From Promethearchaeia archaeon (GTDB lineage Archaea > Asgardarchaeota > Lokiarchaeia > Sigyniarchaeales > SOKP01): a stretch of DNA of 36,889 nucleotides. The first letter of the stretch is position 1; each line of letters opens with the position of its first letter. The notes under the pieces were generated by a model that saw nothing but the letters and a program-made list of their open reading frames with translations, was not told the DNA's origin and ran no database searches. This document shows positions 3,223 through 7,384 of this stretch, in pieces. Made by a program: the position numbers and the translations under genes. The stretch is taken from the NCBI GenBank assembly GCA_029856105.1, contig JAHQWH010000093.1:1-36889 (forward strand), given 5' to 3'.

Positions 3223-4131
3223 ATGTCAAACGATTGGATAGAATCTTACATTAAAGCTGGTAAAGCTGTTAAAGCTGCCAAAAAACTTGCTGCAAAATTA
3301 ATAAAACCAGGAGTTTTATTCTTAGATATTGCTAATAAATGTGAGGAAGAAATATTAAATCAGAGTTGTGAGTTATCTTTTCCAATTAATATGTCTTTAG
3401 ATGAGATAGCTGCTCATTATAGTCCGCCGATTGACGATAGTACTATTGTACCTAATAAAGGATTATTGAAAATCGATATAGGTTCCCACTATGACGGTTA
3501 TATTGCCGATTCAGCAATAACATTTAACATAAATAACGACGAAAAGCTCCAAAACATTATAGACGCCGCTCAAGAAGCCCTTGAAGCAGCAATTGAAATT
3601 TTTAAACCTGGCACAAAATTATACGAATTGGGAGATGTAATTGCTAAAAAAATTAAAAATCGTGGATTAGAACCAATCTATAATCTTGGAGGTCATGAAT
3701 TGAAACGATATAACTTACACGCAGGCCCTTTTATTCCAAATTATAAAGCTATAAGCCATAATCAAGTCTTAAAACCTGGAGATGCTTATGCGTGTGAACC
3801 ATTTGCTACTTCTGGGAACGGTATAGTAGAAAATGGTACTAAATCTTATATTTATCGATTTAATAAAGCAAAGAAGGGTTTACCCTTTATAGAGAAGAAT
3901 TATATGGATCAAATAAACAAATTAACAAAAAAATTACCTTTTTCGCCTCGTTTGCTCGAAAAGTATAATACCATCCCAAAAAATAAGATTCAAAGAACTA
4001 TTGATGTTTTTGTTCGTAAAAAAATTCTAGATCATTATCCAATATTAATAGAAAAAACTAAAAAACCAGTTGCTCAACAAGAACACACCATCATAATCGA
4101 TATGGATGGAAATACTATTGTTACAACATAA
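3223..4131 (+). CDS. map: Methionine aminopeptidase type II
   Basis: AAHYSP, KIDIGSHYDGYIADSA, GHEL..YNLH, ACEPFAT, QQEHT metal-binding motifs. Confidence 0.95.
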   Translation: MSNDWIESYIKAGKAVKAAKKLAAKLIKPGVLFLDIANKCEEEILNQSCELSFPINMSLDEIAAHYSPPIDDSTIVPNKGLLKIDIGSHYDGYIADSAITFNINNDEKLQNIIDAAQEALEAAIEIFKPGTKLYELGDVIAKKIKNRGLEPIYNLGGHELKRYNLHAGPFIPNYKAISHNQVLKPGDAYACEPFATSGNGIVENGTKSYIYRFNKAKKGLPFIEKNYMDQINKLTKKLPFSPRLLEKYNTIPKNKIQRTIDVFVRKKILDHYPILIEKTKKPVAQQEHTIIIDMDGNTIVTT

Positions 4132-4987
4132 AGATAAACCCAAGGAAAACATCACAAGTGTTATACTATGTGCCGGTGAAGGCACTCGTGTTAGAGATAT
4201 TGCGAAACATATTCCAAAACCACTAATTAAGATCAAATCTTTAAACAATCAAACCATTCTTTCGCATTTGATTTCCGGTTTAATCAATTTAGAGATTGAA
4301 CCAATTGTAGTGGTAACAGGTCATTTAGGTGAGCAAATCGAAGTTTTTGTAAATTCTTACCAAATAAAAAATAAATGTAAAAAAAATAAAATATTAATAA
4401 ATCGTTCTGGAGTTCAATATAAATTAGGTCCATTACATTCCTTTCTAAGTATTACAGGAAATAACCAAATTTATAAAGAGGATAGAGTTTTTATGATCTT
4501 TCCAGGAGACACTATTTTTGATCAAAATCTTTTACAAAAAGCTTTGAACCTTTTGTTGAAAAATTATAGTCTACTTGATAAATGTTCAATCATTTTTTAC
4601 AGAAAGATAAAAATTAGCTCGTTAAAAGAAAGATTTAAAACCCACGAGCCTAACTTGTTTAAAACAATATCCTATTTAAAAATAAATAGAAACGGATCAA
4701 AATTAATTGTCAGAGAGATCAAACAGAGAACTTTAAGCTCTTTTAGAAATAAAAAAACGATACATCAAGTTATACCCATTTTTATTTTCAGTTTTAGGAT
4801 AGTTCAAGAAATTAAAAATTTAGCAAATTGTAATAGATATAAAACAATTAGAGAAATTGTTAATTTAATAATCAAGAAAAAAGAAATATTTTTAGCCCTT
4901 TCTATTGATCCTGAATATAATTTTTATGATATTGATTCCCCTATTGATTTAACGATCTTAAATGAAAAAAAAAAAGATGGACAATAG
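4106..4987 (+). CDS. Sugar-phosphate nucleotidyltransferase family protein (NTP_transferase/MobA-like)
   Basis: ILCAGEGTR...PKPL N-terminal motif; FYDIDSPIDL C-terminal motif. Confidence 0.8.
   Translation: MEILLLQHKDKPKENITSVILCAGEGTRVRDIAKHIPKPLIKIKSLNNQTILSHLISGLINLEIEPIVVVTGHLGEQIEVFVNSYQIKNKCKKNKILINRSGVQYKLGPLHSFLSITGNNQIYKEDRVFMIFPGDTIFDQNLLQKALNLLLKNYSLLDKCSIIFYRKIKISSLKERFKTHEPNLFKTISYLKINRNGSKLIVREIKQRTLSSFRNKKTIHQVIPIFIFSFRIVQEIKNLANCNRYKTIREIVNLIIKKKEIFLALSIDPEYNFYDIDSPIDLTILNEKKKDGQ
4965..4975 (-). terminator. Oligo-T (T11 on minus strand) terminator for the candidate ncRNA
   Basis: A11 run on + strand lies directly 3' of the closing helix on the minus strand. Confidence 0.55.
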
Positions 4988-5462
4988 TAGCTCCGATATT
5001 CTAGTATTCTTGTTTCAAAGGAAATACACCTTTTACTCCGTTGAATCGAATTTTAAATCAAAGCTCCTATTGTAAGAATTCATTATTTTTATTGAAAGAT
5101 ATTAATGTTTGGATGTCTCATGTATCATATATCAAAAAAATTATTTAATTCGACAAGAGATCAGGCAAGAGTGTCAACTTGCACCATATACTAATATCAA
5201 TTCTAAACTGATTGCTATATCTCTATTATTACATTATTGCTCCGAAGTGCAAACTAATCTTCCTATGATTCAATATAACGCACTAAAGGAACATGATAAA
5301 ATAAATCCACATGGAAATCAAGGCATAAGCATTAACTCTGGGCGTACAAAAAAAAAAATCCAGAACTTAAGAATCTGTTATCAATTTTGTAACAACAAGC
5401 CAGTTGTTTCAATTGTAACGATGTATTCTAAACCAATGCATATATTATTACTATTGTCCAAC
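4976..5462 (-). ncRNA. Candidate ~485-nt structured non-coding RNA, unidentified; loosely RNase P/MRP-like layout
   Basis: Perfect 12-bp complementary ends TGGACAATAGTA (4978-4989) / TACTATTGTCCA (5449-5460); upstream TATA box; downstream T11; internal stems with G-U pairs and a cUUCGg loop on the minus strand; no credible ORF. Confidence 0.6.
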
Positions 5463-5482
5463 TATTAATATGGCAAAATGAC

Positions 5483-5490
5483 TATTTAAA
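5483..5490 (-). promoter_or_regulatory. Archaeal TATA box (TTTAAATA) for the candidate ncRNA
   Basis: Minus strand TTTAAATA ends about 22 nt before the 5' arm of the terminal helix, the spacing expected for a TSS near 5461-5464. Confidence 0.55.
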
Positions 5491-5603
5491 TGTTGTTATT
5501 AATTTCATTACTAATTGACTCTTTTAATAACAGAAAGTTTAATACATCCGAAAGTTATCATTCAAAATAAGATTATTTACAGTATACAAATTGTTAGGCA
5601 ATT

Positions 5604-5993
5604 ATGTCTGATAGCGGAATAATATCAATTAAAATTGATCTCTTCGGGATAGGGAGTGTATCTGCTAATATAATTCGACATCATGCCCCCTTATCTGCCG
5701 ACGCCATTCTAAATAAGATGCCCTTTGTTCTAAAAGGGCGATTTAGTTTTGGAACAAAAGTGTATTGGACACTTCTAGGTTTGGAATTAAATAAAGGCCA
5801 TAATTCGAAATCAATTAAAATCGTTGAAAAAGGAGATATTATATACAACCCAAAAACTGATGAATTGATAATCCTTATAGAAGATACAGAAATGCCAAAC
5901 AAAGTAAATAAGATTGGAAAAGTTACGGAAAATATAGAATTTCTTCTACAAGCTAGAAATGGCTTAGGAACTAAACTGTCCAGGGTGAAATAG
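5604..5993 (+). CDS. Cyclophilin-like fold protein (TM1367/DUF369-like)
   Basis: APLSADAILNKMPF, VEKGDIIYNP, VNKIGKV pattern. Confidence 0.7.
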   Translation: MSDSGIISIKIDLFGIGSVSANIIRHHAPLSADAILNKMPFVLKGRFSFGTKVYWTLLGLELNKGHNSKSIKIVEKGDIIYNPKTDELIILIEDTEMPNKVNKIGKVTENIEFLLQARNGLGTKLSRVK

Positions 5994-7039: not shown

Positions 7040-7384
7040 TTAGATCTTTGATTTTGAAATTGTAATTTCAATTTTGCTAATTAAATCCTTTTTATTTCGA
7101 TTATTTGAGTTATTTTTTCTAAAATCGTTATTTCTTCTATAATTTCCTTGCTGTCTTCTTTCGAAATAAGGACGACTTCCCAGTGAAACATTCTCTATTT
7201 CTACAGAAGGATACATGCGATTTCTTACAATTTCTGCTACTTCAACTGCGGTAGAAATCTCTTCGCCTTCTCCTTTTATTAATAACGATTTGGTGCCCCC
7301 TGAAAAAGCAAAAATGGCTTCTTTTATTGTTTTTTCTTTTTCTGCGCGATTTCTGATTATTATATGTGTTGTATTATTAGGCAT
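7040..7384 (-). CDS. Divergent Alba-family DNA/RNA-binding protein with R/N-rich loop insertion
   Basis: LLIKGEGEEISTAVEVAEIVRNR...IENVSLGS...ISKIEITISK follows the Alba pattern (IKARG.AIS.AVDVAE..R.RF...VS.IEI.L). Confidence 0.8.
   Translation of the reverse strand: MPNNTTHIIIRNRAEKEKTIKEAIFAFSGGTKSLLIKGEGEEISTAVEVAEIVRNRMYPSVEIENVSLGSRPYFERRQQGNYRRNNDFRKNNSNNRNKKDLISKIEITISKSKI

Follow-up and report, generated by a model that had tools for sequence, protein, structure and literature searches.

A candidate RNA gene with its own promoter and terminator

The window analysed here comprises 36,889 nucleotides (nt; positions 1-36,889 of contig JAHQWH010000093.1, assembly GCA_029856105.1) from a Promethearchaeia archaeon of the class Lokiarchaeia. 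On this contig a gene-free gap lies between a gene for an NTP-transferase (4106-4987, plus strand) and one for a cyclophilin-like protein, and the gap is filled by a single-copy gene for a folded non-coding RNA (ncRNA). We read positions 4978-5460 of the minus strand as a stand-alone gene for a structured, trans-acting ncRNA of about 483 nt belonging to an undescribed family, and assign this reading a probability of roughly 0.78. An unannotated ncRNA gene on the minus strand had been proposed earlier from the sequence alone, and the promoter and terminator that this sequence-only reading gave to it proved to be conserved at each of the 39 genus loci. The features of the locus are compiled in Table 1.

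The TATA box TTTAAATA was read directly and starts 30 nt ahead of the 5′ strand of the RNA, with a spacer of 22 nt between the box and UGGACAAUAGUA (5460-5449). A perfect complement of UGGACAAUAGUA is located at 4989-4978 and is followed on the minus strand by UC and then by eleven U residues (4975-4965). Box, spacer, perfect pairing of the two ends and the U11 run had all been pointed out before and were all recovered in the sequence. The spacing corresponds to the usual distance between TATA box and transcription start in archaea. In these loci the distance from the start of the TATA box to the 5′ strand is 29-30 nt, 7-11 consecutive U residues begin 1-2 nt past the 3′ strand, and the other genera are alike in both respects. 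This arrangement of promoter, paired ends and U run exceeds chance. The conserved signals therefore indicate that the primary transcript should begin and end within the closing helix, P1; the homologues range from 343 to 632 nt in length. What is generally looked for in a structured ncRNA gene was found at this locus, namely a promoter and terminator of its own, stronger conservation than in the flanks, and compensatory changes in helices. The G+C content is 27% in the RNA region and 32% in the genome.

Searching the 3.66-Mb source assembly with a 541-nt query yielded one full-length match, so that the dispersed copies of a miniature inverted-repeat transposable element (MITE), named earlier as a finding that would speak against an RNA gene, are not present. 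Within the same genus a DNA match was obtained in 38 of 41 genomes, with 66-91% identity over the full length, and the best-conserved parts of the RNA gene are its two ends. All 38 fetched loci with both flanks carry the element between the same NTP-transferase and cyclophilin-like genes (one further fetched locus of the genus ends at a contig edge and is cut off), and this synteny is kept throughout the relatives examined. The length of the gap between the flanking genes is nearly constant in the genus, and its DNA identity rivals the amino-acid identity of the NTP-transferase (33-92% in the same loci), which argues for purifying selection. Two loci have longer gaps than the usual ~600-670 nt. 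At L043 (G037:C8) the gap measures 1199 nt, the extra DNA being located upstream of the RNA promoter, and at L060 (G003:C5) it measures 930 nt and the RNA 3′ end is not clearly located. One metagenome-assembled genome (MAG; G014) holds two diverged copies of the RNA on separate contigs (G014:C117 and G014:C57); because the contamination of this MAG is 9%, these are probably derived from two co-binned strains and not from a duplication.

A protein-coding gene was considered and rejected, as no reading frame is conserved among the relatives. The minus strand has no open reading frame (ORF) of 30 amino acids (aa) or more inside the RNA region. Gene calls in public ENA and Logan assemblies include a 119-aa ORF (5109-5468) on the plus strand, antisense to the RNA. 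Already in relatives with 91% identity this ORF is broken, with open stretches that differ in position and frame, no Pfam domain was detected in it, and a homologue search returned its own cluster only (one 99%-identical entry, 6 member sequences). Being unconserved and without homologues, the ORF is a spurious gene call.

Secondary structure of the RNA

The two ends of the RNA are joined by helix P1 of 10-11 base pairs (bp), which abuts an irregular rod of ~90 nt consisting of P2 to P4. Among 88 unique full-length sequences, P1 pairs 1-10 are paired in 86-88, and several positions vary in a compensatory manner: pair 10 is U-A in 56, G-C in 15, A-U in 9, U-G in 4 and G-U in 3 sequences, pair 4 is C-G in 78, U-G in 7 and U-A in 3, and pair 1 is G-C in 87 and A-U in one. 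Compensating changes in P1 were also observed in diverged genera, with C-G replaced by U-A in g12 (also in g21) and G-C by A-U in g16.

P1 is shared with the convergent NTP-transferase gene, whose last codons and TAG stop (4985-4987) are complementary to the P1 3′ strand, while the U-run terminator is complementary to the lysine codons directly preceding the stop. The double role of the 3′ end of the NTP-transferase gene, as P1 and as terminator, is kept across genera, and it may add to the sequence invariance of P1 and lock both genes together. Just 5′ of P2 lies a conserved AAUAG that duplicates part of the P1 5′ strand and is 97% pairable with the CUAUU of P1; this element might pair alternatively with the P1 3′ strand.

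For the rod, covariation was evaluated in a sequence-only MAFFT alignment of 38 sequences (A2). In A2 82% of the cells are paired, compared to 37-54% with slid partners, and the covariation score was 0.193 compared to 0.118 for shuffled alignments, with 0 of 500 shuffles as high; several rod pairs show a full compensatory series. Realigning 83 distinct sequences from four genera and metagenomes with a covariance model of the 3′ domain gave 79.5% pairing compared to 34-55%, and 139 both-side changes compared to 37-68, figures that lean towards the model to which this alignment was fitted. The conserved and covarying structure in relatives by which the sequence-only reading was to stand or fall was thus found in P1 and in P2-P4. 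Applied to the whole genus alignment, RNAalifold returned P1, P2 and small hairpins only. A brute-force search for covarying column pairs was left unused, as it generated false helices from U runs pairing with GGAG-type motifs.

The structure also identifies the strand. P2 contains two U-G pairs in 30-31 of 36 sequences (~85%), and these, like the C-G to U-G changes in P1, would be A-C mismatches on the opposite strand, which argues that the RNA is encoded by the minus strand, as had been proposed.

Between the 5′ strands of P1 and P2 lie ~380 nt forming several hairpins and a conserved central stem. Pairing percentages for H2, H3, the central helices and the stem were derived from a 37-sequence genus alignment. 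The pairing of H1, which includes a conserved C-A mismatch, was read by eye and is provisional. The hairpin with an internal loop described earlier, here H2, is moderately conserved: its inner stem AACAAC/GUUGUU is paired in 75% in the genus, but in other genera a different hairpin takes its place. The central long-range helices, also provisional, are 78% and 67% paired on sequence-only alignment, show a C-G to U-G to U-A series at two pairs, and enclose a variable insert. The stem formed by UGAUCUCUUGU with GAUACAYGAGACA is 73% paired and has a conserved U-C mismatch. Two further elements of the earlier proposal were not retained. The second long-range helix, GAAUACAUC/GGUGUAUUU, is paired in just 47% of the cells of the genus alignment, and the UUCG tetraloop is UUUG, UGUG and the like in relatives, its segment pairing instead with the upstream GUUCC..AGUGC. 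The conserved stems were also checked by eye for kink-turn, sarcin-ricin, C/D and H/ACA motifs, but the G-A pairs or boxes that these motifs need show no conservation.

A run of at least six U residues at RNA positions 60-170 is present in 78 of 87 sequences (median 8 U), and internal runs of this length occur 1.87 times per RNA, at two fixed relative positions, compared to 0.69 times in shuffled sequences. Both U-tracts of the RNA studied here lie within predicted hairpins.

Table 1. Features of the RNA locus and of its candidate partner genes (window coordinates)
Feature	Position	Strand	Basis or remark
Promoter: purine-rich stretch resembling a B recognition element (BRE), and TATA box TTTAAATA	5483..5500	-	BRE-like 5500-5491; TATA 5490-5483
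Predicted mature RNA, 483 nt	4978..5460	-	ends set by promoter spacing and U run
P1 5′ strand UGGACAAUAGU	5450..5460	-	compensatory changes, 88 unique sequences
Hairpin H1 with near-invariant GCAUUGG (5439-5433), closed by AUAC (5426-5423)	5423..5439	-	invariant columns
Hairpin H2 with internal loop	5377..5419	-	inner stem AACAAC/GUUGUU 75%, outer stem 59% paired in genus
Hairpin H3, AGUUCUGG/CCAGAGUU	5334..5367	-	stem 72% paired in genus
Internal U-tract 1 (U11), in H3 loop	5358-5348	-	sequence read
Central long-range helices GUUCC (5292-5288)/GGAGC (5243-5239) and AGUGC (5284-5280)/GCACU (5250-5246)	5239..5292	-	provisional
Highly conserved stem, UGAUCUCUUGU (5163-5153) with GAUACAUGAGACAUC (5126-5112)	5112..5163	-	near-invariant blocks
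Internal U-tract 2	5140-5134	-	enclosed by UGAUCUCUUGU/GAUACAUGAGACAUC stem
Internal AAUAG just 5′ of P2	5067..5071	-	conserved; repeats part of P1 5′ strand
3′ rod domain P2-P4	4989..5065	-	covariation in sequence-only alignment
P2	5065-5057 with 4997-4989	-	abuts P1
P3	5056-5048 with 5009-5001	-	3′ rod
P4	5045-5037 with 5022-5014	-	variable loop
P1 3′ strand ACUAUUGUCCA	4978..4988	-	pairs with P1 5′ strand
Oligo-U (U11) terminator	4965..4975	-	sequence read; 7-11 U after P1 in genus loci
CxxC zinc-ribbon protein, 57 aa	6857-7030		adjacent to Alba paralogue
Divergent third Alba paralogue	7040-7384	-	same strand as RNA gene, ~1.6 kb away

Distribution and rival explanations

The RNA family is represented in at least nine genera, all belonging to one family of Lokiarchaeia, and was not found elsewhere among the genomes searched. 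This range is derived from covariance-model matches, inspection of the cyclophilin-like locus and a strict search for the 5′ motif, and in nine genera of the family the RNA was confirmed by eye. The 3′-domain covariance model gave one match per genome in 89 of 131 family genomes (genera g1, g10, g14 and g21) but none in three further families of the order (19 genomes). Diverged copies also came to light when the cyclophilin-like locus was inspected, in g11, g12, g13 and g16, with an additional one in g14. The strict 5′-motif search across the class identified 75 of 134 family genomes, g15 included. In six further families of the class (27 genomes) it gave a single match (G152, from another order), which is attributed to chance because it has no promoter, partner strand or synteny. 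A scan for the 3′ motif followed by a U run, with each prokaryotic species represented by one genome, returned 34 Promethearchaeota MAGs and one chance bacterial contig, and 40 more copies of the RNA were located on metagenome contigs. In the genomes searched of the sister family, including a single-contig genome of 4.4 Mb, neither a long gap nor the P1 motif was present beside the best homologues of the NTP-transferase and cyclophilin-like genes.

No known RNA family accounts for the element. When the window was compared with Rfam at gathering thresholds, no family matched, and a cmscan of positions 4800-5700 with all 4227 Rfam models at E ≤ 10, the check suggested by the sequence-only reading, gave only a chance C/D-box match outside the RNA. 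Eleven homologous loci from eight genera matched nothing in Rfam at E ≤ 1. Of the two options offered earlier, that of a new class of large ncRNA in Asgard archaea fits. A box C/D or H/ACA small RNA was rejected, as the conserved columns hold no boxes and the sole Rfam match lies outside the RNA. That match resembles the C/D-box small nucleolar RNA sn2429 (5523-5566, minus strand; 15 bits, E = 7.3) and is located between the RNA promoter and the cyclophilin-like gene, where it is probably due to chance. The archaeal signal recognition particle (SRP) RNA (RF01857) was likewise discarded, since it has no match in the window and the SRP RNA of this genome is encoded elsewhere (G000:C8:45383-45695, E = 1.2e-11). 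A resemblance to U6 small nuclear RNA (snRNA) in GAUACA..GAGA and UUUGAAACAA was dismissed because no snRNA model matches.

The other option of the earlier proposal, a strongly diverged RNA of the RNase P or RNase MRP type, is rejected as very improbable. It would be in line with the size of the RNA, its closing helix and an Alba-fold gene nearby, the RNAs of eukaryotic RNase P and MRP being bound by the Alba-fold proteins Pop6 and Pop7, as well as with our failure to find an RNase P RNA in the source assembly (G000; 92% complete, 238 contigs). None of the RNase P models (RF00373, RF00010, RF00011, RF00009, RF02357) and not the RNase MRP model RF00030 matched positions 4800-5700 at E ≤ 10, however, and the 11 homologues did no better at E ≤ 1. 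Moreover, a canonical RNase P RNA of 324 nt (115-142 bits) was detected at a separate locus in 12 of 18 genomes of the genus that were searched, including all of those at least 93% complete, so that genomes of this genus hold both the RNA family and a canonical RNase P RNA. Since 12 genomes carry the canonical copy elsewhere, its absence from G000 is attributed to an assembly gap, and the argument from a missing separate rnpB fails. The P/MRP core also did not withstand comparison. The sequence-only reading itself gave GAGGAAAGUCC as absent, and neither the substitutes that it put forward nor the other motifs cited are conserved: GGUGCAAG is present in the closest clade only, and the pseudoknot would compete for its 3′ bases with P2, a covarying helix that is 96% paired. 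Finally, the solved structures closest to the Alba paralogue are those of ordinary archaeal Alba proteins and not of Rpp20/25. Regarding the assemblies in general, ribosomal RNA genes are almost unassembled in G000 and in two single-contig relatives; in G000 only a 3′-end fragment of the 16S rRNA gene was assembled, at the start of contig C34.

Three further explanations concern the kind of element at this locus. That the locus mainly yields RNAs of ~110 and ~330 nt ending at the internal U-tracts, with the full-length RNA as a minor read-through product or precursor, would agree with the two conserved internal runs of 7-11 U, which resemble archaeal terminators. We consider it distinctly unlikely, as the covariation of P1 requires selection on a molecule with both ends, only one conserved TATA box was seen, and both U-tracts are placed inside predicted hairpins. 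The RNA might alternatively act chiefly as a cis-antisense regulator of the convergent NTP-transferase gene, the last codons and stop of which are overlapped by the P1 3′ strand and the terminator in all genera examined. The overlap amounts to merely ~10-25 nt, though, the ~480 nt of conserved and covarying structure are far more than such a role needs, and the most conserved blocks lie outside it; this makes antisense regulation as the chief role highly unlikely. A DNA-level element, for example a MITE that has been domesticated, or a segment between 12-bp inverted repeats that inverts or is bound by protein, is suggested by the perfect terminal inverted repeats around ~480 bp. This explanation is hardly credible, because the element is single-copy and has the same site and orientation in every assembly examined, the U-G wobble changes break the identity of the DNA repeats but keep RNA pairing, and the promoter is located outside the repeats at a fixed distance. 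An element derived from a MITE or insertion sequence was thus rejected on account of its single full-length match and its one syntenic site in all relatives.

Several observations nevertheless weigh against or limit the case for a stand-alone structured RNA gene. Alignment between genera is poor in the 5′ and central domains, for which RNAalifold gives no consensus; only P1-P4 are firmly supported, and the invariance of P1 may itself stem partly from the overlapping end of the NTP-transferase gene. The folding energy of the whole molecule is no better than that of shuffled sequences (z = -1.1); as it is ordinary on both strands (z = -1.1 and -1.2), thermodynamics alone is uninformative. When public assemblies were queried with spurious ORFs of the RNA, genomic DNA contigs alone were returned, a result that is neutral as to transcription: the 119-aa ORF of the locus was found on 5 public contigs, which are therefore DNA, each of them carrying the flanking genes, and the ORFs of a 91%-identical orthologue gave nothing or a single contig of 926 nt. 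Similarly, the 40 further contigs from the metagenome scan are genomic, and the scan contained no transcript-sized record. The internal runs of 7-11 U are archaeal termination signals, and much of the transcription might stop early. As to the Alba paralogue discussed below, its co-occurrence with the RNA is a single clade-level event, with three genes between the two, and does not represent independent evidence of a partnership; it is therefore a lead and not evidence of binding.

Possible function and comparison with known RNAs

Concerning function, we tentatively suggest that the RNA acts as a stable protein-bound scaffold or as a subunit of a ribonucleoprotein (RNP) and not as an antisense regulator. 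The leads in this direction are the two conserved internal U-tracts and the third Alba paralogue. The paired ends together with the 3′ U-tail might protect the RNA from exonucleases, and the two internal U-tracts and the U-tail are possible sites for U-binding proteins, for example Sm-like archaeal proteins (SmAPs). Oligo-U is a known ligand of SmAPs and at the same time an archaeal termination signal; the U-tracts could therefore be protein-binding sites or points of attenuation.

A conceivable partner, put forward with similar reserve, is the family-specific third Alba paralogue encoded ~1.6 kb away. It is present in 124 of 134 family genomes, with the same phyletic pattern as the RNA, and in every genus it lies at a distance of 1.5-4 kb from the RNA gene; of the other families, four (21 genomes) lack it and two yield no more than marginal matches, with E values of 1e-6 to 1e-7. 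Genera g17-g20 carry the paralogue, although the strict 5′-motif search for the RNA gave no match there. The number of Alba genes per genome is three in the family, compared to one or two in the sister family. A neighbouring 273-aa protein looks membrane-associated (weak CPBP-like match) and is not family-specific. A more far-reaching proposal, which we regard as rather improbable, is that the RNA forms a subunit of a family-specific Asgard RNP with the Alba paralogue, perhaps also with the zinc-ribbon protein and Sm-like proteins, and possibly with a catalytic or RNA-processing role. If true, this RNP would represent an independent archaeal parallel to the binding of eukaryotic RNase P/MRP RNAs by Alba-fold proteins.

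To our knowledge, the list of large structured RNAs in archaea is very short once rRNA, RNase P RNA and SRP RNA are set aside, and no description of such an RNA in Asgard archaea was found in the open-access papers and preprints searched. Asgard archaea are the closest prokaryotic relatives of eukaryotes. An RNA of ~480 nt that has an invariant core and is maintained as a single copy by the genomes of at least nine genera probably has an important role in its lineage, and large conserved RNAs have often turned out to be ribozymes or RNP scaffolds. What is new is the RNA family; the way in which it acts could still prove ordinary. The ends of the RNA are defined exactly and its fold is validated in part; together with a covariance model for the 3′ domain and one candidate partner, this allows experiments on expression, binding and structure to be designed directly.

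Among known systems, archaeal RNase P RNA (RF00373) and RNase MRP RNA (RF00030) are comparable in being large, single-copy and stand-alone, with a terminal helix and an Alba-fold gene nearby, whereas covariance-model similarity is lacking, the P/MRP-like motifs cited are unconserved, and the genus has its canonical RNase P RNA elsewhere. With Sm/Lsm-bound RNAs, that is eukaryotic snRNAs and SmAP-associated RNAs of archaea, the RNA shares an oligo-U tail adjoining a helix at its end, and U-tract 2 (A-U7-G-A) is similar to the Sm site R-A-U4-6-G-R; no snRNA model matches, however, and the likeness is one of low-information U-rich sequence in a genome of 32% G+C. The bacterial RNAs OLE, GOLLD, ROOL, raiA and HEARO differ from the RNA described here, which is archaeal, has a TATA/BRE promoter and an oligo-U terminator, matches no Rfam family and belongs to one Lokiarchaeia family. 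Like them, it is several hundred nt long, restricted to a lineage, built of a conserved core with variable peripheral hairpins, and discovered by comparative genomics ahead of its function.

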